A stretch of 64,000 nucleotides of DNA, taken from a virus (lineage: Duplodnaviria > Heunggongvirae > Uroviricota > Caudoviricetes). The stretch is from IMG/VR virus record IMGVR_UViG_3300037487_000968, positions 141,280-205,279 of that record, one strand, 5' to 3'. Positions 23,070 through 60,617 of this stretch are shown one piece after another; positions within the stretch are counted from its first letter, which is position 1, and each line of letters opens with the position of its first letter. Under the pieces are notes generated by a model that had not been told where the DNA came from, ran no database searches, and worked only from the letters and a program-made list of their open reading frames with translations. A program made the translations under genes and the position numbers.

Positions 23070-23307
23070 TTTTATTCCTTGTGTTGCATGTATTATACAA
23101 CTTTAGTGACTATTAGTCTATATGATACAGTTTATGTATATGAATAAGTGCTTGAGAGTACTTTGTTACACCGTTATTTCCAAGCACAACAGTTGTCATG
23201 CAGGTATTCCCGTGTAATACCCATCCTAGTTTCAGGAGAGTATTTATATTGTCGATAAGTGTATTCTTATCGTTGCTATCAATTAATATATATTCTGTCA
23301 TTTATAT

Positions 23308-23342
23308 TCCTTAAAACATAAAGCCCGCACACGGCGGGCTTT
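23308..23342 (-). terminator. Intrinsic terminator hairpin (AGCCCGC..GCGGGCT)
   Basis: 7-bp GC stem, then TTATGTTTT on the minus strand, just downstream of the CobS-like gene stop. Confidence 0.4.
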
Positions 23343-23352
23343 ATGGCATGCA

Positions 23353-39773: not shown

Positions 39774-40631
39774 ATGTATTTAGCATACACTTATTTAATC
39801 ACAAATAAAATTACCCATCAATTTTATTATGGATCTCGTTATCAAAATATAAAATTAAAAAGAACGCCGGAACAAGATCTTTGGATATTTTATTTTACTT
39901 CATCAAAAGAAGTAAAGAAATTATTAAAAGAATACAATAAAGATTTATTCGAAATATCTATAGTATTCAAATCCGAAAACTACGATGAATGTTACTGGCA
40001 GGAACAAGATCTAATAAAAGAAAATATAATAAATCCTTTGTGTATGAATCTGACATATACTGATAAATCAGCAGGAAGGCACATATTTTCAATGGCAGGT
40101 AAAACTCGATCCGAAGAAGCCTGTAAAAAATCATCAATCTCATTAAAGGCGTATCATGAGAATGAACCAGCTGATGTTAAAGCAGCAAGATTCGCTCTCC
40201 AGAAAGCCGCGTGGAATAGAAGATCGGAGGAATCGGAAATTGAACGCATTGATAAAATGATATTTTCTCGTAATAATAAGACAGAAGAAGAAAAATTAGT
40301 TATGTCGAGAAATAGAAGGATAGCCCAGACAGATAGAGTGGAAGAAGCTAAGTTGATTTCTGTTTTCCGACAAAAAGAGACAAAAGCAAATTGGTCTCCC
40401 GAAAAGAGAGAAGCATTTATAAATAAAGTGAAATCTTGTGTTAATAAGGGTAATGCTAAAGGTGGGACATACCAGATCACTGATCCGGCCGGTAATACAT
40501 ATATTATTGTTAGTTTAAGTAAATTTTGTAGAGAAAATAATCTACCATTTGATTCAATGAGAGGTATTGCTGCAGGAACCCAAAAGTGTTGTAAAAATCA
40601 TCCAGGTTGGCGATTACATAAACTTGACTGA
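39774..40631 (+). CDS. GIY-YIG homing endonuclease (Seg/I-TevI-like, free-standing)
   Basis: N-terminal YTYLITNKITHQFYYGS matches the GIY-x10-YIG core (compare I-TevI GIYQIKNTLNNKVYVGS). NUMOD-like repeats and a C-terminal DNA-binding tail follow. The gene is AT-rich and on the opposite strand. Confidence 0.7.
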   Translation: MYLAYTYLITNKITHQFYYGSRYQNIKLKRTPEQDLWIFYFTSSKEVKKLLKEYNKDLFEISIVFKSENYDECYWQEQDLIKENIINPLCMNLTYTDKSAGRHIFSMAGKTRSEEACKKSSISLKAYHENEPADVKAARFALQKAAWNRRSEESEIERIDKMIFSRNNKTEEEKLVMSRNRRIAQTDRVEEAKLISVFRQKETKANWSPEKREAFINKVKSCVNKGNAKGGTYQITDPAGNTYIIVSLSKFCRENNLPFDSMRGIAAGTQKCCKNHPGWRLHKLD

Positions 40632-42976: not shown

Positions 42977-44017
42977 TTATTTCTCATTGTTGTATTTAGC
43001 CTTCAGCATCGGCATAAATGCTGTAGAATTATCACCGATTTTCTTTAATGCCCACTTACCGCAAAACTTCATAAAGCCCACACCAATTTCAACAGCAGGA
43101 ACATTTTTACGATCAGTTTGCTCTGCTATAATTTGTAGGCATTCAGTTTTTACATTATCGGGTATTTGAGATAGGTCAATTAAAGTTCGGTTAAATTCAT
43201 ATTGTTCTTTAACACGTTTTTCTTCTTCGTTATGATCTACCCATTTCTGTAACATAAAATTGTTCCAGGCGTAGCCCTTGTTTGTATCGGCAAAAGCTTC
43301 CCGGATTCCGATTGTTGCCTTAGTGCCTTTTTCTCTCACACCCGGATAAGCACTAAAGATATTATCAGTCTTATCACCACGAACACATTTTAAGAATAGC
43401 GCATAGTTATACCATTCTTTTTCACATTCGAAGTTAGGATTCTTTTTACCGGCCTTAATCTTAGCATCAGATTTAAGAATAAATTCTAATCGGTTACCAT
43501 CATCATCGAATACACCGTCTTGTTTAATTTGGATATCCTTAACAGGATCATATAACATTACATTAGGATATTTTAATAATTGAAAGAAGTCAGAATCAGA
43601 ACTAATAATAATATGTTGATCATCTGGGTGGGCTTCAATGAATACAGCGATCATATCATCGGCCTCGGCTTTAGGATTCCGAAGTACTGTTATGTTAGTT
43701 TTCTGATCAAAGTATTCAACAAGGTCATCAAAGGATTCCACAAGAATTTCATGATCTTCTTGTTCTTTAATGGTTTGTTGAGCAAAGGCGGTTGGTCGAT
43801 TTCCTTTGTAGTCAGGGTAGATATCCTTACGCCAAGACCGCCCCTCAATATAGAAGATGGTATGGGTTCCATTCCACTTACTATACTCTTTCTTCATACT
43901 GTTGAGTATCAGGTGTAACGCCATGCCTATCATGCTATCGATACCCAATGCAGGATTAGTCATTTTAATTTGACGATAAAATAAATTATGACCGTCTGTG
44001 TGGATAAAAGTGTGCAT
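42977..44017 (-). CDS. rnh: RNase H / 5'-3' flap exonuclease (T4 rnh-like)
   Basis: AEADDMIAVFIEAHPDDQHIIISSDSDFFQLLKYPNVMLY aligns with T4 RNase H YEADDHIAVLVKKFSLEGHKILIISSDGDFTQLHKYPNVKQW. An upstream YKGNRP motif is also present. Confidence 0.85.
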   Translation of the reverse strand: MHTFIHTDGHNLFYRQIKMTNPALGIDSMIGMALHLILNSMKKEYSKWNGTHTIFYIEGRSWRKDIYPDYKGNRPTAFAQQTIKEQEDHEILVESFDDLVEYFDQKTNITVLRNPKAEADDMIAVFIEAHPDDQHIIISSDSDFFQLLKYPNVMLYDPVKDIQIKQDGVFDDDGNRLEFILKSDAKIKAGKKNPNFECEKEWYNYALFLKCVRGDKTDNIFSAYPGVREKGTKATIGIREAFADTNKGYAWNNFMLQKWVDHNEEEKRVKEQYEFNRTLIDLSQIPDNVKTECLQIIAEQTDRKNVPAVEIGVGFMKFCGKWALKKIGDNSTAFMPMLKAKYNNEK

Positions 44018-45357: not shown

Positions 45358-47208
45358 TCATGCCAAACTCGCAAACAGGTGAATCTGCATCTGCATCTTA
45401 AATCCATGCTGCATACAATATTGCCCAACATACTTGTGGTTAGCCTCATTCTTTTCCATATCAAGTAACCCCGGTTCCCACCATGAAATAATCTCATCAA
45501 CTGTGCTACGCTCTGCCATAGTGATCTCACCCTTCTCTGCCCTGAGTAGTTTGATCTTCTGCGGGAAAGAATTATAAATGTTCATTGGGCTACAATAGAT
45601 ATCCTTGCCTGTCTTTACTTTCCAATCATGTGCCCACTGTGGCACATTGTTATAAGGACTTTCTGTATCTGCACTCATAACAAACTTCAAGCAGTCTGCA
45701 CGATCTAAAATAGTTTTAGATGGTGCGTAATACTTCACGGCCTTACCATCCTTCTCCATGCACTTGGGAGAGCAAACGAGTGTAACACCGTCTGGTACTA
45801 CTGTATCAGGAATACCGTTGCTTTCAACTTGTACTGCTTTGAAATACATCTTTTGTTGATATTGCATAAACGCAGAGATGTTTTCTTGCAGCAACGGTTC
45901 GCCGCCAGTCATTACTAATACGATATTAGGATACAGCTTGCCTATCCGAGTTTTGTTCAGTGCCCAATCTGGTGCAGCAATTCCTTTTTCGTTGTTAAAG
46001 TACCCGCAAATAGTATTGTGGATCTTAGTTTCAATCTGTATAAACGTCATCCAATCGCCATCGTCAAAGAAAGTATCACAATTATGTACTACACATCCGT
46101 TAGCAATATATGTATGTGTATCTTCTACTTCGAAATTATAAACGGTACGTTCGGCAGTTTTACTACCGAATAATCTTGCCCATCCTCTTCCGTCGGTTTC
46201 ATTTACAAACTCTACACTCTTTACTACTTTACCGTTATGAATAAATTCCGCAACCTTTTCGCGTATTTTACTATGTTCGGACATTTTAAGCTCGCTCTGA
46301 ACAAGTGGTAAGAATAAAGTATCATACCCTTCTTTAGCAAATAGCGCCTTGCGTTTTTCCATCCACTCTTTACCACGAGGAGATTTTTTAACCCATAGTG
46401 AGTCATCTGCCCAAACTTCAATTACTTTCTTTTGTCCGTTTACAACAAAGTCGGGTACTTTATGCTGGATAACTAAATCCCCGGCACCTACAAAAGTAAT
46501 AGGTAATCCTTCACATATTTTTTCTACTTTAATCTCTAATCCAGATTTAAGTTGTGTTTCTCGATTAACCCAAGATTTTAGAGCAGTAGCAGGATCTTTC
46601 ATTGGATTACCTGCGCCCGTTAAGCGTTCGATATTTTTCTCTCTAAACTCCGGGTCTTCCCATAACGCAGATAATCTTGTTGCTGCTTTATCTTTTTCAT
46701 CCTGAGACATAGGTGCACGATTTGCCAGGTCAAACGCAGGATTAAACACTTTCCTGCGGTCAGATAACGACCAGTGTACAATTTTGTCACCTGCCACTAA
46801 ATCCTCGGCATTAACCCAACTCCTATTAGAGGTTAAGAATGGATGTTCTGGCGTACACCAAACCGGCTCGCCTGAGCTGGTTACTTTAACAATTTTGTCT
46901 GCGATAGACCTGTATGTGCGTGTAACCTTCTTAGGAACCATTTTATCCTTGTCCCACGACATAACCATGTCACCTACTTTGACTTGGTCGATTCGTTTAG
47001 ATTTTCCATCTGCCATTGTAATCTTAGTAGACGGTACAAAGCAAAAGCTACAATCTAAATTGCACTTTGCTAGACGGATGAAGAGTGCGGGCGTGCCAGC
47101 GTATGGTCCTTCTCCCTGAAGAGTGAAGAACATGCTTGTTACAAACAGGCTATCCTTGGGTGCATCCTTAAAATACTTCTTACCGATAATTTCATTAGTT
47201 CCGAACAT
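45358..47208 (-). CDS. queE: 7-carboxy-7-deazaguanine synthase QueE (radical SAM) interrupted by an intein
   Basis: N-extein GEGPYAGTPALFIRLAKCNLDCSF plus C-extein CDTFFDDGDW reconstitute the QueE CX3CX2C-DT signature. Inserted between them are 321 aa bearing intein blocks A (CFVPSTKITMADG), B (TPEHPF) and G (VVHN|C). Confidence 0.8.
   Translation of the reverse strand: MFGTNEIIGKKYFKDAPKDSLFVTSMFFTLQGEGPYAGTPALFIRLAKCNLDCSFCFVPSTKITMADGKSKRIDQVKVGDMVMSWDKDKMVPKKVTRTYRSIADKIVKVTSSGEPVWCTPEHPFLTSNRSWVNAEDLVAGDKIVHWSLSDRRKVFNPAFDLANRAPMSQDEKDKAATRLSALWEDPEFREKNIERLTGAGNPMKDPATALKSWVNRETQLKSGLEIKVEKICEGLPITFVGAGDLVIQHKVPDFVVNGQKKVIEVWADDSLWVKKSPRGKEWMEKRKALFAKEGYDTLFLPLVQSELKMSEHSKIREKVAEFIHNGKVVKSVEFVNETDGRGWARLFGSKTAERTVYNFEVEDTHTYIANGCVVHNCDTFFDDGDWMTFIQIETKIHNTICGYFNNEKGIAAPDWALNKTRIGKLYPNIVLVMTGGEPLLQENISAFMQYQQKMYFKAVQVESNGIPDTVVPDGVTLVCSPKCMEKDGKAVKYYAPSKTILDRADCLKFVMSADTESPYNNVPQWAHDWKVKTGKDIYCSPMNIYNSFPQKIKLLRAEKGEITMAERSTVDEIISWWEPGLLDMEKNEANHKYVGQYCMQHGFKMQMQIHLFASLA
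46081..47043 (-). mobile_element. Intein (aa 56-376 of the QueE precursor), large enough to carry an endonuclease domain
   Basis: Starts with Cys1, has a TxxH block B, ends YIANGCVVHN and is followed by a +1 Cys that is also the third Fe-S ligand. Confidence 0.75.
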
Positions 47209-47807
47209 TATTCTTTGCCGCCTTTTAGCTTTTCTACTATTTTAGACGCTTCCAACAAATAAGTCAAGTCATCTGCCGTTAGGGAACCTTTTTCTTTAGC
47301 AATTTCAATTAAGTCAGCAAATACACTGTCTCTCATTCTATGCTTTACACCCTGTGTAATACCGGATTGCATTTCACCCCCTAGTGATATTGATCTAGCA
47401 AAGGCTTCAGCCGCTTCATTTACATCAATACCATTACCCCATGTTATTGTACCATCTCGGTTGAGACGAACAATCTCTGTATTAGACTGATTATAAAATG
47501 TGACTACAGAAGTAGAATTATGAAGATTAGTACCAATTGTAAAACTGCTAGATCCTTGATAAGGGGATGATGTTATTGTATTATAAACACTACCTGCAGC
47601 TATTGTTGATCCCGTGATCATACTGCTATTCATTGTATATGTCGGGATATTCGTCCCGGTTGATAAGGTAATATTTCCCACGGTATTAGCAGAACCAATA
47701 GAGCTATTAGCGGGAAAAGAGGAAGGCACTGTTACTGTAGTAGGCATTTTAGTTTTACCCTTTTTAGAAAACCATTTCTTAAACACATTAAACTCCTGAC
47801 GAGTCAC
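47208..47807 (-). CDS. Ser/Thr/Asn-rich hypothetical protein
   Basis: 199-aa ORF. Confidence 0.45.
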   Translation of the reverse strand: MTRQEFNVFKKWFSKKGKTKMPTTVTVPSSFPANSSIGSANTVGNITLSTGTNIPTYTMNSSMITGSTIAAGSVYNTITSSPYQGSSSFTIGTNLHNSTSVVTFYNQSNTEIVRLNRDGTITWGNGIDVNEAAEAFARSISLGGEMQSGITQGVKHRMRDSVFADLIEIAKEKGSLTADDLTYLLEASKIVEKLKGGKE

Positions 47808-48123
47808 CCCATGTATGCATGTATCTAGATAGACGTGCCATCTTATTAATGCGGGCTTTTTCTATACCCTCAGCTGTAACACCTAGGCCAGCGTTTGTGA
47901 CCATATCTACCAGAGCCAATACATCACCTAATTCCATTTCTAAATTTTCGAGATTGGTTGTTGTAGAATTAGGATTTTTACCTACAACACCAAATCTCTT
48001 AATCTTTGAAGCTGCCTGAATAACTTCAGCACATTCTTCCTGCAAAATGTTTAGGCATTCTTCCTGATGATCATTTACCTGTTTCAAATTTCTTCTCCCA
48101 GTTCCATGCATGTGAAATAGCAT
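47788..48123 (-). CDS. mazG: MazG-like nucleotide pyrophosphohydrolase
   Basis: EECAEVIQA...ELGDVLAL EExxE/D motifs of the all-alpha NTP-PPase fold. Confidence 0.6.
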   Translation of the reverse strand: MLFHMHGTGRRNLKQVNDHQEECLNILQEECAEVIQAASKIKRFGVVGKNPNSTTTNLENLEMELGDVLALVDMVTNAGLGVTAEGIEKARINKMARLSRYMHTWGDSSGV

Positions 48124-49045
48124 CTTTGATATTATATTGTGGTTCCCAATTTAGTAACTGTTTTGCCTTGGAAATATCTGCTACTAATTCTGCCGGGTCA
48201 CCTAACCGTCTAGGCATATATTCAATTACTGGTGCAACACCAACAACCTCGCCTGCATACTGAACCAGTTCTTTAACACTAACACCATCACTGCCACCAC
48301 CGAGATTAAATGCTTCGTTGCCATTCCCGGCATCGAAGAAATCTATTGCCTTAGCATGAGCATCAGCCAGATCTGCGATATGAACATAATCGCGAACACA
48401 GGTGCCATCCTTAGTGGGATAATCATTACCAAATAAAGGAAATGATTCACCCTTTAATATCTTATTACATAAAATAGGAATAACGTGTGTTGCCGGACGT
48501 TGAACATATCCAAAACGGCAGGCTGGATCAGCACCTGCTGCATTAAAGTATCTAAAATTTACATACTTTAGACCATACGCCCTGGCATAATCCTTAATCA
48601 TTAATTCGCCTGCTACTTTTGTCGATGCATATGGATTCTCTGGATCATAGTATAGACCTGCTTCTTTAAGTGGTCCATCTTGACCTTGCCGACCATACGT
48701 ATTTCCGCTAGAACTAAAGATAATGTTCTTCATCCCATTAGCGACCATGATGTCGAGCATACCCTTCATTTTTACCACATTATTTGCGTAATACTTCTCC
48801 GGTTCTGTTACGCTCTGTTCTACTAGATGCTCTGCCGCAAGATGTATAATAGTATCATAGTGAAAAATATTCGATTGTAGGAAACTAAGATAATCCTCTT
48901 CAAATATAGTTGCTGGTGTATCCCAATTCTTAATCTTACGATCTACTATAGATACCTGATGTCCTTGCTCGTGTAATTTGTGTGCTACTTGCGTACCAAC
49001 AAACCCGCTACCACCCGTAATTAAAATTTTATGCTTTTTTGTCAT
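48071..49045 (-). CDS. NAD-dependent sugar epimerase/dehydratase (GalE-like, extended SDR)
   Basis: N-terminal TGGSGFVG Rossmann motif and YASTK catalytic YxxxK. 324 aa. Confidence 0.7.
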   Translation of the reverse strand: MTKKHKILITGGSGFVGTQVAHKLHEQGHQVSIVDRKIKNWDTPATIFEEDYLSFLQSNIFHYDTIIHLAAEHLVEQSVTEPEKYYANNVVKMKGMLDIMVANGMKNIIFSSSGNTYGRQGQDGPLKEAGLYYDPENPYASTKVAGELMIKDYARAYGLKYVNFRYFNAAGADPACRFGYVQRPATHVIPILCNKILKGESFPLFGNDYPTKDGTCVRDYVHIADLADAHAKAIDFFDAGNGNEAFNLGGGSDGVSVKELVQYAGEVVGVAPVIEYMPRRLGDPAELVADISKAKQLLNWEPQYNIKDAISHAWNWEKKFETGK

Positions 49046-49304
49046 TTACTAACCTTTCAATAATCTTATATGCATCGTATGCCTCTTGTAATGCAGGGTA
49101 CTTATCTTGCATAATTTGGTTGGGCTCAATAATTGCTAATCGTGCTTCTATTGCTTCTATCCGTTTAAGAAGTATTTTATAATCGGATTCTGCAAATATA
49201 GGACCCCATGTTGCTCCGGTACTACCTGCAGTTAATACGACACCAGGTAAAACTGTGCCTACAGTTTGAGCTATAATTCCATAATTTGGTTCCCCGACGC
49301 TCAT
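49029..49304 (-). CDS. hypothetical protein
   Basis: 91-aa ORF. Confidence 0.35.
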   Translation of the reverse strand: MSVGEPNYGIIAQTVGTVLPGVVLTAGSTGATWGPIFAESDYKILLKRIEAIEARLAIIEPNQIMQDKYPALQEAYDAYKIIERLVNDKKA

Positions 49305-49588
49305 GCTGAATACTTTATTTTGAAGAATAGTGCATCATCGGAATCTACAAACCCTATGTAGATAGCTTCTGATCCATACCCATTGTTAAATTTTACTTCT
49401 ACTAATCCGTTACTGTTTGAATTTACCCACTCTATCATATCTAGAAAGCCGGGTGTATACAAACGCTTTACTACTACCTTATATTTCTTATCAAAGATAG
49501 GCTGGCCATCACATCCTATCATATCAATAGGTTTTTCAGTCGAGGATGACTTTCGGAAAATACGAAAGAGTTGCGCCATTTTCCCCAT
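49301..49588 (-). CDS. hypothetical protein
   Basis: 95-aa ORF. The start is uncertain and may be an internal Met. Confidence 0.3.
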   Translation of the reverse strand: MGKMAQLFRIFRKSSSTEKPIDMIGCDGQPIFDKKYKVVVKRLYTPGFLDMIEWVNSNSNGLVEVKFNNGYGSEAIYIGFVDSDDALFFKIKYSA

Positions 49589-49898
49589 CTTCGCTTACCT
49601 CCACAGAAACTGTCCGGTTTGGGTATGCACCTACAATATAGTTAATAAGTTCTTCTGCGAGCATTTCACAGCTCTTATAATCTACCTCCATTGCACCGCT
49701 ATCAAAGATAGATTCTAGTTCGCGTTTAAATAAAATAAATTCAATATCTCTATCATTGTGTTCCACAGACACGGTTGCCTTAAAATGGAAAATATGTCGA
49801 TGCGGGTGTTTTAAAAATTCTACACCAGCTGGTGCATCTGGGTAGCGATGAATCCCTTCTTTCTGGAAGGTAACAAAAATAGTTCTATTTAAACTCAT
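49536..49898 (-). CDS. queD: QueD-like 6-carboxy-tetrahydropterin synthase (PTPS family)
   Basis: HRYPDAPAG...HPHRHIF parallels E. coli QueD [21 protein letters not shown]. Overall length is 120 aa. Confidence 0.6.
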   Translation of the reverse strand: MSLNRTIFVTFQKEGIHRYPDAPAGVEFLKHPHRHIFHFKATVSVEHNDRDIEFILFKRELESIFDSGAMEVDYKSCEMLAEELINYIVGAYPNRTVSVEVSEDGENGATLSYFPKVILD

Positions 49899-50638
49899 TT
49901 TTTGGCTTTTGCCTTCTTTGTAGATTCCTTCGCTGAGAGCGGGTCGGTTTTAGCACCTTCAGCATATGCTTCAGCTGCGTCCGTAGGGCTCTTAATAAAG
50001 GCGACTGGCGATACTTTCGTTTCTTCATATTCCGGCTTTAATAATGATTTAGAATCTGGATCAAGTCCTAGTTCTGTCTGATTTTTTACCTCAGTCTGCA
50101 CTGTTACTGCTGGTGTTGATTGCTCTTGTGTAATAATCAAATCCGAACCATATTCCGTCCAATCAGTAAAACGGTTACTATCGGTTACTTCCTTAAAGTG
50201 CATACACCACACACCCGGGTTGGTTGCATTAAAATCAACATCGTCAATTTTAACTGTTAGATTAGAACTAGTTGTTTGTATACTCGGAATTCGTACACTT
50301 AACAACGGTACAAACATTCTAGATAACCAAGTAGCAGGATTCAATACACTTAGCATTGCCTTATGTAAATGCGCTTCGTATTCGAGTGTCACCCAAAAAC
50401 CTTTATCTAATAAAGCAGTAATAGTTTCATTCCAATAAGGTGATACAGGAATAGATGCATCAAATGAGTGATTGGCACCCATAAAGATATGTGTTACCTT
50501 ATGTTCTGTGGCATGTTTTAAAATAGATTTAATATCTTGTTTACCGACTACAAATAAAGTCTTCTTTGAGTATGCAGGTGTATGCTCTACCTCTGGGCCG
50601 ATGAAGAATGCCACATTGTTATGTCCGTCTCTTTTCAT
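49895..50638 (-). CDS. hypothetical protein inside the deazaguanine cluster
   Basis: 247 aa, no recognisable motif. It lacks the QueC SGGxDS motif and has a Lys/Ala-rich tail. Confidence 0.45.
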   Translation of the reverse strand: MKRDGHNNVAFFIGPEVEHTPAYSKKTLFVVGKQDIKSILKHATEHKVTHIFMGANHSFDASIPVSPYWNETITALLDKGFWVTLEYEAHLHKAMLSVLNPATWLSRMFVPLLSVRIPSIQTTSSNLTVKIDDVDFNATNPGVWCMHFKEVTDSNRFTDWTEYGSDLIITQEQSTPAVTVQTEVKNQTELGLDPDSKSLLKPEYEETKVSPVAFIKSPTDAAEAYAEGAKTDPLSAKESTKKAKAKK

Positions 50639-50807
50639 TTTATTTCCTTATACTAATTCTTCGATAATACCTAACATTTCTGCAACCACAATCATTGTGC
50701 CTGCAAAAAATAGGTTACCTACTGCTAGACTGCATCCTGCTACAATGCGTAATGCACTTTTAACGAAACTAATTCGTTGATGTAATTTTGGATCTGGCTG
50801 TTTCATT

Positions 50808-51986
50808 TTAATATTTTGCCTTTGCTACGTGTTTTCTATAATCATTACCATTACGTGCCCACTCTTCGCCTTTGCCTTCAAATACGTCTAGTGTGCGATC
50901 TATTGTTCCATTTTGCCAATCACTTACTGCACCTGTTTTATATGATGCCGGACTCACAAACATCTTTTCAAGTCTTTCTGCGGCATCTTCTACGCTCCAC
51001 GGAATATACATATTCTTTGGATTATTAGCAAATACTTCCGGAAAACTGCGATATGCTGGATATAATGTTAGTGTGCCAAACGTGTCAGCTTCGCTTACTG
51101 TGTTACTTACCCAGTCTTGTAAAGCACAGTTAAATAAAACGGTGCTATCAGCAAGCAATTCATAGTAGTCATTCTTTTTCAGACCAGTATAGATCTTAAA
51201 ATTCGCAGTTCCGCTGGTTGTCAAATATTCGGCAAACTCGACATGCTGCTTATTATTACTCTTTAATTTAGGATGACCACAGAATATAGCAAATTCAACA
51301 TCTGGTCGAGTTTTGTAAAATCTCTGTGCCAATTGCATATAGAATTCTGGTTGCTTTTCGTCATCCCATCTTGCTGCAAAACCTACACGTTGCTCACGTG
51401 ATGTAATTGGTTTGACAAAAGGTACTCTGCTCTTAACTTCTTCTTTACCAAACGGTAATCCTGTTACATAGATAGGTGCTTTCATTCCTGCAATACGCAG
51501 ATTTGCAACCATTTCCTCACTTGCGACAAGAATTCCTGATACAAACTCATCTACCATTTTTTCGTAGTGACGCATCCAATGTGCCATTCCTTCACGATTA
51601 ACAAAATCATCTGGATCAATAGATTGTGCTAAACAACGAACATACACCTTTGGGCGAAACTTTTTAGGAACCTGTTCTAAGATATACGGTAAGCTTTCGA
51701 TGCCGGGTGTAAACATATCCTCATAAAAGATAACATCATCTTTTGTTACCTTACCTTCCTTCATAAGTTTAACAAGATTGGCTGTCTGCAACATACTATA
51801 ATATGTTCTGCCGTGTGCATCCAATACACTACCTGTAACAATTTTCTTATCTGTGCTTAGTTCGCTACCCGTTACAAGTTCATATTCAATACCGCGCAGT
51901 TTAAATACACGTTCATTCCAATCTTGTAGTTGAAGTGTATAACGTGCTTCATAACTTTCTAAACCCATATAAAATAGTTTTCTCAT
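50808..51986 (-). CDS. Glycosyltransferase (GT-B, group-1-like)
   Basis: The C-terminal half carries the EX7E-like region typical of GT1 enzymes. Start set at the MRKLF Met (51986), which has an AAGGGA Shine-Dalgarno. The ORF itself extends to 52040. Confidence 0.5.
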   Translation of the reverse strand: MRKLFYMGLESYEARYTLQLQDWNERVFKLRGIEYELVTGSELSTDKKIVTGSVLDAHGRTYYSMLQTANLVKLMKEGKVTKDDVIFYEDMFTPGIESLPYILEQVPKKFRPKVYVRCLAQSIDPDDFVNREGMAHWMRHYEKMVDEFVSGILVASEEMVANLRIAGMKAPIYVTGLPFGKEEVKSRVPFVKPITSREQRVGFAARWDDEKQPEFYMQLAQRFYKTRPDVEFAIFCGHPKLKSNNKQHVEFAEYLTTSGTANFKIYTGLKKNDYYELLADSTVLFNCALQDWVSNTVSEADTFGTLTLYPAYRSFPEVFANNPKNMYIPWSVEDAAERLEKMFVSPASYKTGAVSDWQNGTIDRTLDVFEGKGEEWARNGNDYRKHVAKAKY

Positions 51987-51988
51987 TT

Positions 51989-52228
51989 TTATCCCTTTAA
52001 AATATATGCGAGTACATCCTCGCCTTCGACTACCACACATTGACTACCGTATACTAGATAACCATCTCTATAATGTCCCTGAACAGGCATTGCTCTTATC
52101 ATTTTAGGCATTATTTTAGTAACCGAACATATCATTAAAGAATTATGAACTGCCACAGCAACTTTAGTACCTAAGCAAATGGGTCTGCCGAGTATATCAG
52201 GGTGTTCAGGTGTTACTTTCTTTGGCAT
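51989..52228 (-). CDS. hypothetical protein
   Basis: 79-aa ORF. Confidence 0.35.
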   Translation of the reverse strand: MPKKVTPEHPDILGRPICLGTKVAVAVHNSLMICSVTKIMPKMIRAMPVQGHYRDGYLVYGSQCVVVEGEDVLAYILKG

Positions 52229-52529
52229 TGGTTGTATGTGTCGAATATATGCGCTTTATGTGCGATATTACTTCGTTATCTATTTCTTTGGCTATTTCTG
52301 CCGATAATACCCTAAGCATTTCATCTTCAAGACGTTCTGCTGCGGTCTTGTATGGTTGGCTTAATCGACGAACAATCTCATCTGCTTGTTCTTCTTCATT
52401 CATATCCTTAACACCCTTTAGAGGAAAGGGCGGTTTAGGTGATGGGTGAATACCGTCGCTCCAATTCGTTAATATGCGAAGTGGTGCGCTGGCGGGCTTA
52501 TATGTTGTTATCTTATCTATCATAGTCAA
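52206..52529 (-). CDS. hypothetical protein
   Basis: 107-aa ORF. Confidence 0.35.
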   Translation of the reverse strand: MTMIDKITTYKPASAPLRILTNWSDGIHPSPKPPFPLKGVKDMNEEEQADEIVRRLSQPYKTAAERLEDEMLRVLSAEIAKEIDNEVISHIKRIYSTHTTNAKESNT

Positions 52530-52923
52530 TGACGCGAATCAGCTTATCTCCCATCCAATGAGAGCAACCTTCATTCTTATCCTCAGCCATATCTTTCAGC
52601 ATCTTAGTGTAATCTTTCTTGCTGATTTCTCTACCATCGACGATAGTTTCACCTAGATAACGCTGTGATACAGATTCAAAGGAATCGTCATCATTACCAG
52701 AATCAATCATTGTTACTTCATCATATGCGTGTTCAAGCTCTGCCGCTTCAATTACATAACGATGTCTAAAAGTAGAAATAGTATCAACGATGTATAATTT
52801 TTTCTTAGCCACTTTATTTTCTTCCTTCTTAAGTTTAGATGCCATCATTATATTATAAAACTCTAGTTGTTTTTCTACAACCTTTTTCGCTTCTTTCACG
52901 CCCGGAAAATCTTTAGTTCTCAT
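52513..52923 (-). CDS. hypothetical protein
   Basis: 136-aa ORF. Confidence 0.4.
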   Translation of the reverse strand: MRTKDFPGVKEAKKVVEKQLEFYNIMMASKLKKEENKVAKKKLYIVDTISTFRHRYVIEAAELEHAYDEVTMIDSGNDDDSFESVSQRYLGETIVDGREISKKDYTKMLKDMAEDKNEGCSHWMGDKLIRVIDYDR

Positions 52924-53747
52924 AATCCTAGTCCTTCCAAATTTTCGTAGGGCACTCTAAATCCTGCTGCATGGAAATGTCCGCCGCCGCCGTGAGTTAC
53001 AGCAATAGCCGACACATCGATTCCTTCTTTAGATGAACGCAAACTAAATTCGCGTCCATCTGGCTTATCATAATAACAGGCAGCAAAAGGTTCGTTGATA
53101 GCCATAATATGTCCTGCTTCAGAACTCATTGTATACGGAAGATTACATACAGGTACATCGTATCCTGCAATCGTGATTCTTTTCTGCATAACACCGATCA
53201 ATTCCCGAATATCTTTTAGGTGCTTACGATCGATCGCCTTACCTTCGGTAATCAATTCTTGTAGGTCAACCTTCATCAACATATCCCAATTTTCGAATGT
53301 GTAACCATAGCTGAAAATTGATGCTTGAATTTCTTTTGTGAATGGGATTTTAAATTGCCAACGATCTCTATCATCGACATGTTTAATAATTTGAGGAATA
53401 TCTTCACCGGGGAAAAAGAACATCCAGGTAAGCATTGCACCGCTGAAGTTATTTTCTAGACTATAAAGTGTGGTCATTTGTTTTTCTAAACCCACTAAGT
53501 CGATAATTGCTGTTGCGTGGTGGTCGATATGTGTAACGCTGTTTGCCTTAGCAATGATTTCTTCCATTACAGGGCGTTTATACGCAAAGTCTACAATATA
53601 GACATCTGCTCCTGTTACATCTGGTGGTGGTGTTTGATATACTCCTGCATGGTATTCAACGTCTTCACCTAACGCCCTTCGTACTACCCATGCTGCTGTA
53701 AATCCATCGGCACAGTTGCCATGATAGATACATATTTTCTTCGTCAT
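52920..53747 (-). CDS. DHH-family phosphoesterase (NrnA/RecJ-like, DHH+DHHA1)
   Basis: IYHGNCADGFTAAW (motif I/II), IDHHATAI (DHH) and GGGHFHAAGF (DHHA1 GGGH). Confidence 0.7.
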   Translation of the reverse strand: MTKKICIYHGNCADGFTAAWVVRRALGEDVEYHAGVYQTPPPDVTGADVYIVDFAYKRPVMEEIIAKANSVTHIDHHATAIIDLVGLEKQMTTLYSLENNFSGAMLTWMFFFPGEDIPQIIKHVDDRDRWQFKIPFTKEIQASIFSYGYTFENWDMLMKVDLQELITEGKAIDRKHLKDIRELIGVMQKRITIAGYDVPVCNLPYTMSSEAGHIMAINEPFAACYYDKPDGREFSLRSSKEGIDVSAIAVTHGGGGHFHAAGFRVPYENLEGLGL

Positions 53748-53981
53748 TTATTTCCTTCTTTTCGGTTGTTGGCTCTTATGGCGAATGTTTAGATTGTGGG
53801 GCCTCGGCGGCCTCGAAACAAGTTGTGGTTCACATTCTGCAAACACTGAATGGGCACATATGAGCCCATTCAGCATGCCATGCATATAGTTTACGCCCGT
53901 CCCGCCTACATATACAGAATCCGACTGTATACCAATCATGCTCTCTAGGCAACTAAGTTGTTTTTGCAGTTTCTCATTCAT
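53748..53981 (-). CDS. hypothetical small protein
   Basis: 77-aa ORF. Confidence 0.3.
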   Translation of the reverse strand: MNEKLQKQLSCLESMIGIQSDSVYVGGTGVNYMHGMLNGLICAHSVFAECEPQLVSRPPRPHNLNIRHKSQQPKRRK

Positions 53982-55512
53982 CTATGTTAATAAGGTCTTC
54001 TTTATCAAGACTTGCAATATCCTCACCCTTAATCTCTTTCTTTGTATTTGCATTAGAATGATCAAATAAGGAATGGTATGTATCAACGATCTTATTTTCC
54101 TTGAAACTTATACTGTTGAGCTGCCCCTCATAGTCCTTTAGTAACTGATATGCACCATCTCTATCTCTAGAAAATAGTTCTTCAACGAAACTGTTAAAGA
54201 AGAAAATATTATTTGGTAAGAAATCGCAAATTGGCACTTTTGATTTCTTTACCCAATCTCGATAATCAATCTTCTTGGTTGCATATACAATATCTGCATG
54301 CCGATTAATTTCTTGTACAGCCTGGATGTGATTATAGACATTATGTCCCATAACAATAGCATAGGTAGTTGTGTCCCAACTTGTCTTACCTTCCTTGCCG
54401 TGCTTATTTAAATCGCCCGGGCCCATCACGCATAAATCACCAACAGTACAACGCTCCATAATAGGGCCCTGGAATGTCATTCCTAATTTACTACCCTTTA
54501 GGGATTTATCATCCAAACCTCTTCCCATTGCATAGGTAAGTTGATCGGGATCAAATTTATTATAATTATAGGAAAGAGCATATCCGCCTGCTGCAACAAA
54601 TGGCGATGCAGCATCAAAGCTAATATTGATATTAGGATTATACTTCTTCAGTTGGCGTTCAATTGATGTTAAGAAACATGCCCAATCTAATCTACCAATT
54701 CCCAAAAAGTGAATCCAGTCTTTAGTTGCTAGTAATCCATCTTCTCGTAGATCAATAAGACGTTCGAGTGCAGTTTTCATATCTCTCATGTTGACACCGG
54801 CGAATGCCCATCCCTCAAGTGTTCTATCAGGTGTGTATCCGAGTGCCTCTACTGCTTCCGGAATGCTATATGGGATAACTCTTTCGTACCATGTTTTCGA
54901 TGTTTCATTTGAACTACCCGAAAGTACATTTAAAAATTTAGTTGCACCAGGTACTCGATGTTCCATAAAATATTTGAGATTGTATTCAGTAACATCTAAG
55001 CAATCTTCAAATTTAGTCAACCCAGTCTTTTCACTCAATGGTGGTAATGCGGCAAATGCCGGGACATCTAATGTCATTGACCAATCTGAAGTGTGTTCTA
55101 GATAACGTAATATTTCTTCACGTAATTTATCACCCGCTGGAGTCATAACGGTGGTCCAATCCATCTTTATAACACCTGTTGCAATTTGGAATCCACCTGA
55201 GTCGCCGACAAGGATAGTATCTTTATCACGCTTGTGAATCATAGGTTCCCTATCATCACACTTATCCAGTTTCCGTTCAGCGTGGCCTGCTGAATACAAT
55301 CCATACTTGTAACTAAAGTACGCATCTTCGGGACCCTTTAAAAAGTCCAATCCCTGAATACCTAGTTCAAATTTTTCTGGTACACGCTCTTTGGGAATAA
55401 ACTTCTCATCTAGCAAATCTTTGCCCAGATGTGTTGTATAGAATCCGCTAATGGCAGGCAGGTATCGAGCCCATTGGCCTTCGTTGTGTCTTTTTGTAAA
55501 ATCAATTCCCAT
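53974..55512 (-). CDS. dpdA: TGT-family DNA/tRNA-guanine transglycosylase (DpdA-like)
   Basis: ILVGDSGGFQIATG matches the catalytic DSGGFQ motif of queuine/archaeosine tRNA-ribosyltransferases. 512 aa, co-clustered with queD and queE. Confidence 0.65.
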   Translation of the reverse strand: MGIDFTKRHNEGQWARYLPAISGFYTTHLGKDLLDEKFIPKERVPEKFELGIQGLDFLKGPEDAYFSYKYGLYSAGHAERKLDKCDDREPMIHKRDKDTILVGDSGGFQIATGVIKMDWTTVMTPAGDKLREEILRYLEHTSDWSMTLDVPAFAALPPLSEKTGLTKFEDCLDVTEYNLKYFMEHRVPGATKFLNVLSGSSNETSKTWYERVIPYSIPEAVEALGYTPDRTLEGWAFAGVNMRDMKTALERLIDLREDGLLATKDWIHFLGIGRLDWACFLTSIERQLKKYNPNINISFDAASPFVAAGGYALSYNYNKFDPDQLTYAMGRGLDDKSLKGSKLGMTFQGPIMERCTVGDLCVMGPGDLNKHGKEGKTSWDTTTYAIVMGHNVYNHIQAVQEINRHADIVYATKKIDYRDWVKKSKVPICDFLPNNIFFFNSFVEELFSRDRDGAYQLLKDYEGQLNSISFKENKIVDTYHSLFDHSNANTKKEIKGEDIASLDKEDLINIDE

Positions 55513-55542: not shown

Positions 55543-56286
55543 TTAGGCCTTGCCTGCAGGTAGAATATAGGAATATTTGCCGATGCCGCTATCGATATCA
55601 ATCTTTAATGCACCCATATCAGAAAAACTCATTGTTGCTGTTGATGTTTCTGTTAACTTTAGAATAGCAAGAACCTGAGCCAAAGGCCACGACCATTGAT
55701 GTTTTAATGTGCCTGTTACATTATCTGCAAATGGTAAGACAGTGCTATCTGTCGGGCCTGTTCCTACTGCAAAATTTAGTGTCCCTTTATCAACACTAAC
55801 CACAAAACGTTTTTCAAAGCCGCCTAGTGTGCCTAACATATAAGACAGCTCTGCAATCTTCTTCTTTTCCGGTGTAATGGTTACATTCCAAGTCGCACCC
55901 TTAAAAGGCGGAACCTTAATTTGCTCATTAACCATTGTTTCACTCATGAAACGATAATTTGCCGAATGCCCGTAGCCAGATGCAAATTTAACACCAGTTG
56001 GAACAGTCACACCGTTACGTAATTCTGTAACAATATCGGTTGATGCCTTATCTCCGCTAAATACTGGAAAATCAATAAAGCCCTTTAGAATAGCAACACG
56101 TGATAAACCTACTGTTGCATCAACACCGGTAATAGGCTGATACATGGTTCCGAAAACAACCACAGTTTTATCTGCGTCGATTGCTTCAATTTTTGCATCT
56201 GCCCCTGTACCTACAATTTTTACCATATCAATAAAGCCTAACGAATTTGTGTGCTTAATGATATCCTTAAATGAATCTAATAACAT
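55543..56286 (-). CDS. Putative sliding clamp (T4 gp45-like)
   Basis: 247 aa directly downstream of the DNA polymerase. Size and position resemble T4 gp45, but sequence similarity is weak. Confidence 0.35.
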   Translation of the reverse strand: MLLDSFKDIIKHTNSLGFIDMVKIVGTGADAKIEAIDADKTVVVFGTMYQPITGVDATVGLSRVAILKGFIDFPVFSGDKASTDIVTELRNGVTVPTGVKFASGYGHSANYRFMSETMVNEQIKVPPFKGATWNVTITPEKKKIAELSYMLGTLGGFEKRFVVSVDKGTLNFAVGTGPTDSTVLPFADNVTGTLKHQWSWPLAQVLAILKLTETSTATMSFSDMGALKIDIDSGIGKYSYILPAGKA

Positions 56287-56340: not shown

Positions 56341-59292
56341 TCACATCTTGCTGAAGTCAAACAATGTCTCGAGATGTGCGTGTTCTTTATTGGTTCTACT
56401 TAAATCCCATTTAAGTACGCCTAGTAGATTTTCTACTTTCTTATCAACAATACCTGCCATCATATCATCGCTGTCAAATGGTAGGTTTAAGAACCACTCT
56501 GGCAGATGATTCTCATCCACAGGATAGGCAATTGATGTAAGTCTGTTTTCGGATGTTTCTTTTAGCTTACAAACAATAATTTTCTGTCCGTCGATAATTT
56601 TCATAGCATGTTGATCTAAGTGGACTTCTTTTAATCTATTCCACGCAAGGCTTGCTGTTACGTGGCCCGGTACGTGTAAGTTACCTACCTCAATGCCTTT
56701 TAACTTCTTAAATCCTGCATCTTCGAGTTTATCTCTATAATGGGTCAACTTATTAACTGCTCGCGGAGTGCCTTGTTGCCAAGGTTTCATATCTTCAAAT
56801 TTTTCCTTGAATAAACGAACCTTCTCAATAACCGCATTTTCACCTTTGTCTATAAGAGTATCCATTAGTATCTCAGAGAGGAATTTTTGCACGAATTTAG
56901 GCGTATCTGCACGCTTCAAATCGAGTCCCATAGCCTTTACCTTACCTACCTTACCACCTACATCGAGTCTAATACCGTCCTTATCATACATTAAGCAAGC
57001 ATAACGCTTCTTAACCATCCATATCCCGGTCTCTGAAACAGTTTCACGAGAGCTTGCAATTACGCCGGTTGAACGCTTAATAGGCACATTAAATTTACCT
57101 AATAAGAATTCTGGGAAGGTTGCGGAAACTGCTTTTGCCAGGTCATTGTAAAGATCTACAATACTTTCTTTAGTCCATACAATCTCATTACGATCTATTT
57201 CTTCTTTAAGTATAGGATAGGCAGAGAAATAGCACGAGTCTGTATCACCATACACAATCGACTTACCGTAGTGATCATATTCACCTGTCATCATTTCGTT
57301 AGTCTTTGCTGCCATATGTTTGGTAATCGTTCTACCGGTTAATGTAGTTGATTGTCCTAGGCGTTGATCAAAAAATCTACTACCTGCATTTAATAACGCA
57401 CCATATGCAGAATTTAAATTAATTTTCTTAACAAGTTGACGCTTATCCCAAAATCCAACAATACGCTTTAAGTCCTTTTGATCTCTGTGAATTGCCTTAC
57501 CATCCTTAACCATTAGGTTGTGTTGATTCATATATTGAATAACACGCTTTGTATGGCCTTCAGCAATGATTTCCTTTAATTTTTTAGGTCTGTATGACTC
57601 GGCGTCTAAGTAAGGGTTAGCCTTTAACTCTGCATCGTTAATATCACTATTTGTGAACAATTCCGCCGGTACCTTCACGCCTTCTATCTTGTCATTATCC
57701 TCAATGTCTTGATAGTTAACCATAATACCCTGCAGTATCTTACGCTCGTTATACCAACGAGTTAACAGACTAGGAATTACCCCATCGGCATCAGTTTTAA
57801 AAATTGTACCATTAGCACTAATGCACCAAGGTTGTCCACTTTCAAATATAAGATCGTGTAACTCTTTACCGGTTACTTCATATTCAGAACCGTCTTCCAT
57901 ATCTAATATTAGCTTTGTACCAATATCTTCATTATAAAAATCTTCCATCTCGAGCACATGGAATCTATCATTCCACCATGACGCAAATGTGTATTTGGCT
58001 CCTCTTGCTTCCCAATCCTTAATTGCCTGATTTGTACGGTCTAACCTAATTTGTCCCACAATCATTTCTGGGCTCATATTAAGCGTTCTAATTACAGATG
58101 GATATAGTGACTTCATGTCAGTGCTACCTATCCATCTGTGAAATCCTTTCTTTGGTGTTGCAACCCAACCACCTGCTGCTCGAGCTGATTTCTCATCGTG
58201 CGAATGTTTCTTATCCGGGCATATCATATTACGGTTATGTGCTTCCATCAGCACATTTTGATCTGTAACCGCAACTGCACCCATTGTTGTTTGGATTAAT
58301 ACACAACTTGAATGTGCAATTGAGTTTGCTAAGTCAATAAATTGTAGTTTCTTATCAAGTTTATCTAACAATCGCGTATCTTGTAGGTTGTATTCTAGGA
58401 ATTTCTTAAAATCATCGTTATATAATTCGTCTAATGTACCATCGTATTGGACTTTAGTTTCACCTAATTCAACCTCGGCAATTGCGTTAAGTGCATAGCT
58501 GTGGCGTTCTTCATAATTATACTTCTTGTAGATTGCCATGTAGTCAACTGAAATACGGCCAATCAAATCATATGTAATAGCTTCCTTACCGCCACGATCA
58601 TATGTGCGTTCTTTAGGCATTTGTTCCCAAAGACACATTCTTCTAGCTTCGTTCTTACCTAGGATTTTCTTTATACGATTTACAACATATGGAATATCAT
58701 ACACTTCTGAATTCCAACCAGATAGAACATCAGCATCCTCAATAATGTCTATAAAGGCGTTTAGCATATCTGCTTCTGATTTAAACAATACTGTGTTGCC
58801 TACTTCGTCTGCAATCGCAGTGGCTTCTTCCCATGTTAGTGTTTCGGGAGGAATAGCCAAACATATGATTTCATCTAACCACTGTAAATGTACAGATATA
58901 GCAGTGATATAATTATTTGCATCAGCTGCATCAGACCAACCTTCTTCTTTATCAAAGCTAGTTTCGATATCGAAAAATGCCACATTTAAGGTAGGTGCAT
59001 CACCGTGATGATAATTGTGTTCAAGACAACGAAAGATAGGATCAACATCAGATTCCCAGCGTCTGACATTACCTGACAGTGTTTTTATTAACTTTTGTTT
59101 TTCTATGAAGGTACGCGGTGTAATCTTTTTTACCGTATCATCGTATATAGTTTTGTGCGAGCCCTTTGGGTCGCTAAGATAGAAGTGATAATCTGGTTGG
59201 AATTCACGATAAACACGTTTACCGTGAATTCTTTCTACAATTTTAATTACTTCAGTATCGCCGCCCTTCTTAAAGAGCGCATCAATATACAT
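56341..59292 (-). CDS. Family-B DNA polymerase (T4 gp43-like) with 3'-5' exonuclease domain
   Basis: Exo I FFDIETSF, pol motif A DMKSLYPS, motif C YGDTDS. 983 aa. Confidence 0.9.
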   Translation of the reverse strand: MYIDALFKKGGDTEVIKIVERIHGKRVYREFQPDYHFYLSDPKGSHKTIYDDTVKKITPRTFIEKQKLIKTLSGNVRRWESDVDPIFRCLEHNYHHGDAPTLNVAFFDIETSFDKEEGWSDAADANNYITAISVHLQWLDEIICLAIPPETLTWEEATAIADEVGNTVLFKSEADMLNAFIDIIEDADVLSGWNSEVYDIPYVVNRIKKILGKNEARRMCLWEQMPKERTYDRGGKEAITYDLIGRISVDYMAIYKKYNYEERHSYALNAIAEVELGETKVQYDGTLDELYNDDFKKFLEYNLQDTRLLDKLDKKLQFIDLANSIAHSSCVLIQTTMGAVAVTDQNVLMEAHNRNMICPDKKHSHDEKSARAAGGWVATPKKGFHRWIGSTDMKSLYPSVIRTLNMSPEMIVGQIRLDRTNQAIKDWEARGAKYTFASWWNDRFHVLEMEDFYNEDIGTKLILDMEDGSEYEVTGKELHDLIFESGQPWCISANGTIFKTDADGVIPSLLTRWYNERKILQGIMVNYQDIEDNDKIEGVKVPAELFTNSDINDAELKANPYLDAESYRPKKLKEIIAEGHTKRVIQYMNQHNLMVKDGKAIHRDQKDLKRIVGFWDKRQLVKKINLNSAYGALLNAGSRFFDQRLGQSTTLTGRTITKHMAAKTNEMMTGEYDHYGKSIVYGDTDSCYFSAYPILKEEIDRNEIVWTKESIVDLYNDLAKAVSATFPEFLLGKFNVPIKRSTGVIASSRETVSETGIWMVKKRYACLMYDKDGIRLDVGGKVGKVKAMGLDLKRADTPKFVQKFLSEILMDTLIDKGENAVIEKVRLFKEKFEDMKPWQQGTPRAVNKLTHYRDKLEDAGFKKLKGIEVGNLHVPGHVTASLAWNRLKEVHLDQHAMKIIDGQKIIVCKLKETSENRLTSIAYPVDENHLPEWFLNLPFDSDDMMAGIVDKKVENLLGVLKWDLSRTNKEHAHLETLFDFSKM

Positions 59293-59610: not shown

Positions 59611-60237
59611 TCAAGGATTTCTTACTGCTTCTGCCCGTTTGAAACGATGAGGACCAACTAATTCCAATCTTGAAGGATTATTCATAATTTCTGGATCCTT
59701 CATGAATTCACTTTTAGGATTTACCCAAAACCCTACCATGTTACCTTTTAATGGTAACTTTCCATCTTTAACTGGAATTGCCTCTTCAAATTCTCCACCT
59801 GCCTTTGCTGTTCCATAGCTTCTTTTATGTTGTCCCTGCAATTCTTGCCCAGGTTTTGAAACTATTTTCCTCATTTTTTCATGTTTAGAAAGTTCCGGGG
59901 CATTGACTCGAGCTTGACCTCTAATATCTCTACTTTGGCTTGTGCCTAATGTTTTATATCTTGATTCTACAGCATTTCTATCTAAAACTATCACAGCATG
60001 ACGACCGACTCCTGCCTCCTGTTCACCCGACCCTGTACCGCCCGAAGCATAATTCCAGTCTCTTGTTGTGCTCACAGTTGGTAATTCTGTCTGTGCCTGA
60101 GTAGATACTTGAGGTCCAGAAGCTGCCTTAAGAAAGCCTGATGCAAGAACAGCCTTTGGATCTCCAGTGGCGTGATAGAGATAATTTCCACCAACCGCTT
60201 CTACCATAAATTCCTCGGCTCTCATTTGCAAGCACAC
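59611..60237 (-). CDS. hypothetical protein (weak ADP-ribosyltransferase-like motif order)
   Basis: 208 aa. YHAT...STT...EFEE occur in the order seen in H/R-S-E ADP-ribosyltransferases, but this is only suggestive. Confidence 0.4.
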   Translation of the reverse strand: MCLQMRAEEFMVEAVGGNYLYHATGDPKAVLASGFLKAASGPQVSTQAQTELPTVSTTRDWNYASGGTGSGEQEAGVGRHAVIVLDRNAVESRYKTLGTSQSRDIRGQARVNAPELSKHEKMRKIVSKPGQELQGQHKRSYGTAKAGGEFEEAIPVKDGKLPLKGNMVGFWVNPKSEFMKDPEIMNNPSRLELVGPHRFKRAEAVRNP

Positions 60238-60617
60238 CTTGCGGCTTCTTTTCCTAGGTAGTCATTTATAGCTGCTTTAATGGCATCCTCGGCCAATATG
60301 CTACAGTGTATTTTGACTGGAGGGAGGGCGAGTTCTTCAACAATCTGACTATTCTTAATGCTTCCTGCTTCATCAAGCGTCTTACCCTTGACCCATTCTG
60401 TGACAAGAGAACTGGAAGCAATCGCCGACCCGCAGCCATACGTCTTAAATTTCGCATCTTGAATAATTCCATCTACTACTTTGATCTGTAGCTTCATTAC
60501 ATCTCCACATGCCGGTGCCCCCACCATTCCTGTACCAACATTTAGATCGGCACTATCCATTTTTCCCACATTACGTGGATTTTCGTAGTGATCTACTACT
60601 TTCGAACTATAGGCCAT
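60222..60617 (-). CDS. iscU: Fe-S cluster assembly scaffold IscU
   Basis: Near-colinear match to bacterial IscU: MAYS.KV.DHYENPRNVG...GAPACGDVMKLQIKV...KTYGCGSAIASSSL...PPVKIHCSILAEDAIKAAI. Confidence 0.85.
   Translation of the reverse strand: MAYSSKVVDHYENPRNVGKMDSADLNVGTGMVGAPACGDVMKLQIKVVDGIIQDAKFKTYGCGSAIASSSLVTEWVKGKTLDEAGSIKNSQIVEELALPPVKIHCSILAEDAIKAAINDYLGKEAARCACK

Follow-up and report, generated by a model that had tools for sequence, protein, structure and literature searches.

The DNA of Cellulophaga phage phiST is fully 2'-deoxy-7-deazaguanosine (dDG) in place of deoxyguanosine (PMC10516641), and the phage encodes a cluster of DpdA3, DpdL, QueD, QueE, FolE and MazG. DpdL was named by Cui et al. 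in 2023 as a QueD paralogue and proposed decarboxylase of 7-carboxy-7-deazaguanine (CDG), in which the motif LxxxHRHxF replaces CxxxHGH (PMC10516641). The DNA of the Pseudomonas jumbo phage PA5oct (Wroclawvirus) resists several enzymes that cut G-containing sites and is attacked by nucleases that sense modified G; a 2025 preprint on END nucleases names only QueE and PTPS for this phage and no transglycosylase (PMC12191111). Here, we analyzed a stretch of 64,000 nucleotides (the window; positions 141,280 to 205,279) of the Caudoviricetes record IMGVR_UViG_3300037487_000968 from IMG/VR. A sequence-only reading of the window had proposed a phage DpdA-type system beside replication genes, comprising a TGT-fold protein of 512 amino acids (aa), a QueD and an intein-containing QueE, with the carboxylated base (dCDG) as a possible product. 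The core of this proposal was upheld by the fold of the 512-aa protein, the alignment of its catalytic Asp residues and the modified G of the related phage PA5oct; the QueD identity and the dCDG base were not. We conclude that the locus probably represents a DpdL-type module by which a PA5oct-like jumbo phage modifies its DNA with 7-deazaguanine.

The DSGGFQ motif on which the earlier proposal relied was found at residues 104 to 109 of the 512-aa protein and is the sole DSGG among the window open reading frames (ORFs) of at least 40 aa. The protein had no match in Pfam, PHROG or NCBIfam, and searches of the PDB with its sequence or with a family profile were empty; the relationship to TGT/DpdA proteins was visible only by fold comparison and hhalign. 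The best match in the fold comparison was the DNA preQ0 insertase DpdA (7ui4; 17.7), followed by QTRT2 (15.7), archaeosine TGT (15.2), bacterial TGT (14.7) and Cap10 (12.7), and generic TIM barrels reached 11.2 or lower, leaving a clear gap below TGT/DpdA. The top six Foldseek matches were TGT/QTRT2 proteins. A family profile built on 80 diverse sequences, with column identities averaging 19%, aligned to Escherichia coli TGT with a probability of 89%, and this alignment brought into register the DSGGFQ motif, the base-binding Asp, the Q-G motif, the Gly-rich loop, the (Y/H)L(M/L)G(V/I)G strand and the nucleophile Asp. D104, D149 and D300 align with D89, D143 and D264 of the E. coli enzyme. D104, F/Y108 and D300 are conserved in 100% and D149 in 97.5% of 80 homologues. 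The predicted roles are acid/base (D104), stacking (F108), base recognition (D149) and nucleophile (D300); those of the respective bacterial DpdA counterparts D95, F99, D130 and D256 were set by mutagenesis (PMC10164549). At residue 198, the counterpart of TGT Gln203 and bacterial DpdA His181 (recognition of the Watson-Crick edge), 63 of the 80 proteins have Gln and another 11 have His. The 512-aa protein is thus a predicted catalytically competent member of the TGT/DpdA superfamily. Its family, large and unannotated (760 clusters at 50% identity and >3671 clusters at 90% identity), is a separate clade that is unnamed in the literature searched.

Among phage proteins, DpdA2 (Vibrio phage nt-1 type) was the nearest group by profile comparison. 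Alignment of the family profile by hhalign gave 96.6% (E = 5e-10) for Acidovorax phage ACP17 and 96.3% (E = 1.5e-9) for Stenotrophomonas phage Moby over about 175 core columns, and the family hidden Markov model (HMM) matched the same two proteins at E values of 2e-9 and 5e-8 in a small database. The DpdA2 class was defined on the nt-1 type, which the ACP17 protein matches. Like the 512-aa family, DpdA2 lacks CxCxxC and lies beside the family-B DNA polymerase gene (PolB) and replication genes; ACP17 shares with the window the whole arrangement of DpdA, DpdL, QueE, a glycosyltransferase (GT) and a protein that we call U. The 512-aa protein differs from DpdA2 in being about 100 aa longer and in having its own large family, and most DpdA2 phages carry QueC, unlike the window module. 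No BLAST link of the family to known DpdA2 or DpdA3 was found: tblastn between the 512-aa protein and DpdA2 gave no match in either direction at limits of E≤1e-5 and 1e-3, and the direct comparison reached only E = 0.065. Identity to bacterial DpdA (Salmonella Montevideo, 7ui4) and to TGTs is about 11 to 16%. Compared to these proteins, the 512-aa protein carries about 95 additional residues at the N-terminus, ends in an acidic tail and lacks the zinc site, and the module lacks the DpdB and DpdC partners of the bacterial system. The phiST cluster resembles the window in having DpdL, no QueC, MazG within the cluster and a position beside the polymerase; it differs by its 259-aa DpdA3, to which the 512-aa family is only marginally related, and by lacking a GT4 glycosyltransferase, U and GalE. 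An assignment of the 512-aa protein to DpdA3 (CGPG_00065) was rejected, as hhalign gave 65.9% over 83 columns and the phiST protein has no DSGG.

The C-termini of the 512-aa family (window positions 53974 to 54060) are acidic tails, many of which end in an (S/N)LF(D/E)(F/Y)-like motif. A motif of this kind also ends DpdA2 of ACP17 (TLDELFE; 7698 to 8972 of the retrieved stretch) and of Moby (SLDDLFG; 6001 to 7212), and it resembles the clamp-binding C-terminal peptide of the T4/RB69 DNA polymerase. The tail may tether the transglycosylase to the replisome; that of the window protein, SLDKEDLINIDE, is less typical of the family.

The 120-aa protein that had been read as QueD turned out to be DpdL. 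Its residues L29-KHP-H33-R34-H35-I36-F37 constitute the published LxxxHRHxF signature, and in the alignment it is 42 to 50% identical to the DpdL proteins of PA5oct, ACP17 and phiST and 18 to 25% identical to QueDs. It matched phiST CGPG_00067 (E = 3e-18) and ACP17 ASD50405 (E = 7e-34) by tblastn and a DpdL HMM at E = 3e-51. No Pfam PTPS match was obtained, the catalytic Cys of the QueD motif HCxxxHG(H/Y) is replaced by Leu, and the DH...DDP block is missing. The genomic context fits as well, with a DpdA-like gene and QueE in the cluster, QueC absent, and FolE and QueD outside the window. CDG decarboxylation by DpdL is a proposal even for the founding members of the family. With the T-fold protein assigned to DpdL, no true QueD is left in the window either, and dDG or a derivative of it becomes a likelier product than either dCDG or dPreQ0.

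The third enzyme of the earlier reading, QueE, was confirmed as a radical-SAM protein interrupted by an intein. Pfam Intein_splicing matched residues 64 to 376, and TIGR models matched the N-terminal (56 to 126) and C-terminal (356 to 377) intein regions; the sequence reads CNLDCSF / C56...VVHN376 / C377DTFF. The intein thus spans residues 56 to 376 (321 aa; window positions 46081 to 47043). Only its removal completes the CX3CX2C motif (C49-x3-C53-x2-C377), the +1 extein residue Cys377 being the third Cys ligand of the iron-sulfur motif; QueE should therefore be unable to bind its cluster before splicing. The exteins (residues 1 to 56 and 377 to 616) align to ACP17 QueE in two blocks of 35 to 70% identity, and four TIGR QueE models match the N-extein. 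The intein and sequence divergence keep the full-length protein under the NCBIfam cut-offs. The QueE proteins of PA5oct and ACP17 are intein-free, and tblastn detected the intein in none of 80 related loci.

These 80 IMG/VR loci, which were retrieved by homology to the 512-aa protein, carry relatives with 41 to 97% identity to it. Their dominant gene order is PolB, a 247-aa protein, DpdA-like, U, DpdL, GT, (GalE), FolE, QueE, a 216-aa protein and RNase H. The 247-aa protein next to PolB was present in 80 of the 80 loci, PolB in 75, U in 72, DpdL in 67, GT in 58, FolE in 40, QueE in 28, GalE in 15, MazG in 8 and a DHH phosphoesterase in 3; since many contigs end early, these counts are lower bounds. 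Neither QueD nor QueC was found in any of the loci (0/80 each). The subclade of the window deviates from the dominant order (DHH, GT, U, DpdL, GalE, MazG, a 199-aa protein, QueE), and its cluster has no FolE. The closest cultured phage that shares these genes, PA5oct, is a distant relative; megablast of the cluster against phage genomes gave no nucleotide match. Several metagenome contigs carry the cluster in identical form, and the identical protein is encoded on a 210-kb JGI contig. At the protein level, the locus is collinear with PA5oct over PolB, the 247-aa protein, the 512-aa protein (EST35_0316, a "hypothetical protein"; 48% identity), the glycosyltransferase-like protein, the 120-aa T-fold protein (48% identity), the 216-aa protein and RNase H (EST35_0325). 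The PA5oct cluster lacks GalE, DHH and MazG, its U homologue (EST35_0364) lies 28 kb away, and its QueE is barely similar to that of the window. The genes of the 42- to 60-kb region of the window form one minus-strand run (Table 1).

Table 1. Genes of the putative modification module and its neighbors in the window
Feature	Position	Strand	Basis or remark
DpdA-like transglycosylase, 512 aa	53974..55512	-	Predicted TGT/DpdA-superfamily TIM barrel
DpdL, 120 aa, QueD paralogue, T-fold	49536..49898	-	LxxxHRHxF signature and homology
QueE with 321-aa intein	45358..47208	-	phrog_2076 (E = 1.5e-43), Intein_splicing
GT-B / GT4-like glycosyltransferase, 392 aa	50808..51986	-	Conserved beside DpdL
Protein U, 247 aa	49895..50638	-	Conserved N-terminal domain of ~170 aa
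GalE-type UDP-hexose 4-epimerase	48071..49045	-	TIGR01179, Pfam Epimerase
MazG-type nucleoside-triphosphate pyrophosphohydrolase	47788..48123	-	Pfam MazG (E = 3e-6)
DHH/DHHA1 phosphoesterase	52920..53747	-	phrog_4771 (E = 1e-99), Pfam DHHA1
247-aa protein between PolB and DpdA-like gene	55543..56286	-	phrog_12062, unknown function
Family-B DNA polymerase (PolB)	56341..59292	-	Pfam DNA_pol_B and exo domains; phrog_262 (E = 5e-191)
RNase H / 5'-3' exonuclease, downstream boundary of conserved block	42977..44017	-	Pfam 5_3_exonuc_N (E = 2e-17)

The reported absence of QueC and FolE from the window was reproduced by every approach. No SGGxDS or CEHH motif was present in the 64 kb, Pfam detected neither protein in 50 larger or cluster ORFs, phage FolE, QueD and QueC had no tblastn match in the window at E≤1, and HMM searches for QueC and FolE were empty for each of the 392 ORFs that reach 40 aa. 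The 199-, 216-, 136- and 107-aa ORFs of the cluster were ruled out as hidden FolE, QueD or QueC by profile-profile comparison. In PA5oct, FolE (EST35_0253), a canonical QueD (EST35_0254) and a QueD-like gene (EST35_0258) are located about 55 kb from the DpdA-like gene. These two QueD-like genes, present in addition to DpdL, differ from each other, one having CxxxHGH and one CxxxHGY (19206 to 19724 and 21501 to 21971 of the retrieved stretch), and the second is annotated as hypothetical. QueC was not found in about 96% of the PA5oct genome; the search covered all but 200001 to 210999 and 236563 to 236799, and the annotated genes flanking the larger gap encode structural proteins. A scan of IMG/VR with a QueD query returned at least 80 loci, and by eye no contig among the matches listed was shared with the DpdA-like contigs. 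The earlier suggestion that the missing steps are encoded elsewhere or supplied by the host can therefore be kept in part: by analogy to PA5oct, other parts of the genome of the window's phage probably encode FolE and QueD, and QueC is absent throughout the 80 loci and about 96% of PA5oct. The absence of QueC is to be expected, as the DpdL-type phage phiST also lacks it and yet has dDG.

Three other explanations of the gene set were weighed, and we regard each of them as less likely than a DpdL-type module. The first reads the absence of QueC from the window, the 80 loci and most of PA5oct as a sign that the free base stops at CDG, which the transglycosylase would install directly as dCDG, with the T-fold protein acting as QueD and closing the gap left by the lack of a true QueD in the window. 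dCDG occurs naturally in STSV-2, and insertion of CDG by DpdA3 was considered possible by Cui et al. (PMC10516641). We nevertheless consider this explanation unlikely, since the T-fold protein has the exact DpdL signature and not the Cys that QueD needs, PA5oct and ACP17 encode a genuine QueD besides DpdL, and the phiST gene set, with DpdL and without QueC, gives dDG instead of dCDG (PMC10516641). The product is thus more probably dDG or a derivative than the dCDG suggested earlier.

Still less probable, in our view, is that host QueC, FolE and QueD complete the synthesis of preQ0, which the enzyme would insert in the manner of DpdA1, DpdA2 and bacterial DpdA, with DpdL and GT being unrelated to the modification. 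Many hosts of deazaguanine phages possess a full queuosine pathway (PMC6884629), and the nearest structural match of the 512-aa protein is a preQ0 insertase. However, QueC is missing from 80 of the 80 loci while FolE, QueE and DpdL are retained, and the tight linkage of DpdA-like, U, DpdL and GT recurs in unrelated phages. It would also be hard to explain why a phage boosts CDG synthesis and leaves the next step to the host. Because the pathway lacks QueC, preQ0 is an unlikely substrate here, unlike for bacterial DpdA. A nucleotide-level route, in which the deazapurine would be converted to a deoxynucleoside triphosphate (dNTP) and incorporated by PolB, with MazG and DHH clearing canonical or intermediate nucleotides and the TGT-fold protein acting on nucleotides or tRNA, could draw on the MazG and DHH genes of the cluster, on an annotated xanthine-guanine phosphoribosyltransferase in the cluster of cyanophage BUCT-ZZ01 and on phiST, which also has MazG and 100% replacement (PMC10516641), but is similarly improbable given an intact base-exchange triad in all 80 loci (retrieved by homology to this enzyme; PolB-adjacent in 75), the lack of a phosphoribosyltransferase in the Pfam scans of 50 larger or cluster ORFs of the window, and a protection of PA5oct DNA that seems limited to some G contexts (GA/GG) (PMC12191111) and therefore fits a sequence-selective postreplicative enzyme better than bulk dNTP replacement.

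The pathway that we propose for the DpdL-type module builds on the folds, residue conservation, gene content and gene order of the locus; its enzymatic steps, DNA substrate and base identity are derived from these, and experimental support comes from relatives only, namely the modified G of PA5oct and the dDG of phiST. FolE and QueD, encoded elsewhere in the phage genome or supplied by the host, would convert GTP to CPH4. Intein splicing would restore CX3CX2C, and active QueE would then produce CDG. The QueC step would not be used; instead, the Cys-less DpdL would process CDG, presumably by decarboxylation to 7-deazaguanine. On double-stranded phage DNA, the 512-aa enzyme would replace guanine with the deazapurine after replication, using the double displacement typical of TGT/DpdA; D300 would be the nucleophile and D104 the acid/base, and the base would be held by D149 and F108. 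GT4, fed by GalE in this locus, and U would most likely elaborate the base or be needed for the reaction, and the modified DNA would escape restriction.

Several observations weigh against this interpretation. The Pfam TGT model PF01702 does not match the window protein and matches only 3 of the 80 homologues, weakly (best E = 0.007). The transglycosylase activity of the family is a prediction, and its sequence similarity to TGT is marginal. The zinc site CxCx2C...H is lacking: none of the members aligned (0 of 80 and 0 of 48) has CxCxxC, and past D300 there is no group of conserved Cys residues. This site is conserved in TGTs and bacterial DpdA; ACP17 and Moby also lack it in their DpdA2-type proteins. 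Residue 198 is Ser in the window protein and in five others, so that base specificity may be shifted in this subclade. No FolE or QueD was found in the 10 kb beyond either end of the window, and together with their absence from the window itself this means that the CDG supply in this phage is assumed. Finally, expression of dpdA and dpdL from ACP17 and phiST in E. coli gave no dDG (PMC10516641).

GT, GalE, MazG and U had been overlooked in the sequence-only reading, and we assign them to the module. GT has a GT-B fold of two Rossmann domains, with GT4 enzymes as the nearest structures. It also lies beside DpdL in ACP17, Sinorhizobium phage Phosso, Xanthomonas phages X1 and BUDD, Burkholderia phage BCSR5 and BUCT-ZZ01 and was present in 18 of 29 phage records carrying DpdL; the phiST group lacks it. 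A genetic link between GT4 and DpdL thus exists in six or more unrelated groups of phages, and this recurrent pairing suggests an uncharacterized hypermodification. No link between 7-deazaguanine and a glycosyltransferase in phage DNA was found in the literature searched. U, which sits between the DpdA-like gene and DpdL in its 72 loci, is a near-universal member with homologues directly upstream of DpdA in ACP17 (ASD50402) and in PA5oct. It had no match in Pfam, PHROG, NCBIfam or the PDB, also when a profile was used, and a local hhalign comparison with FolE, QueD, QueC, DpdL and MazG was empty, so that it is not a hidden FolE, QueD or QueC. GalE scored 298 bits with TIGR01179 (curated cut-off, 262.3) and E = 7e-51 with Pfam Epimerase, and it comes after GT in its 15 loci. 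A MazG-like gene also lies within the phiST cluster, and MazG takes the position of FolE in five related loci. The DHH/DHHA1 phosphoesterase is restricted to the subclade of the window, and its role in the module is uncertain.

We tentatively propose, as a possible rather than a probable extension of the DpdL-type reading, that DpdL and GT4 (with U and GalE) make an undescribed glycosylated or sugar-dependent 7-deazaguanine hypermodification, whose installation would fall to a fifth DpdA clade that has no zinc site and is characteristic of PA5oct-like jumbo phages. If true, this would explain both the modified G of PA5oct and the lack of dDG from ACP17 dpdA and dpdL in E. coli. The locus supplies a transglycosylase candidate for the PA5oct-like jumbo phages, which are of therapeutic interest and whose DNA is known to carry a modified G, and it defines a large DpdA-like family without a Pfam or PHROG model. 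The rule that every 7-deazaguanine phage encodes DpdA would be extended, and the coupling of GT4 to DpdL offers a concrete, testable starting point for finding a new DNA hypermodification as well as the components still missing from the dDG pathway.

Two clusters with DpdL and GT contain further genes that could encode extra pathway enzymes: the phosphoribosyltransferase gene of BUCT-ZZ01 noted above (12303 to 12764 of the retrieved stretch) and, in Xanthomonas phage X1, the gene of a "PAPS reductase family" protein beside FolE (6091 to 6624 of the retrieved stretch). On the replication side, PolB adjoins the cluster as had been reported. The clamp label given to the 247-aa protein next to it could not be verified, since neither the sequence nor the family profile matches a PDB clamp, and in PA5oct the homologue, EST35_0314, carries the annotation of a structural protein of the virion on the basis of mass spectrometry. 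Elsewhere in the window, two HNH endonuclease genes and a SegE-like GIY-YIG endonuclease gene (3510 to 3962, minus strand; 20524 to 21108, minus strand; 39774 to 40631, plus strand) are probably free-standing homing endonucleases; the SegE-like gene runs against the other two, at a place where the GC skew is locally inverted. A DUF2201 metallopeptidase/VWA-like protein adjoins a MoxR-like AAA ATPase (21861 to 24447, minus strand). A D-Ala-D-Ala carboxypeptidase (Peptidase_S11; 14442 to 15212), a cell-wall hydrolase (7468 to 8016), an SPFH/Band-7 protein (31373 to 32596) and a NifU_N-like protein (60222 to 60617) are also encoded on the minus strand, and an ATP-dependent DNA ligase was located at positions 1240 to 2637.

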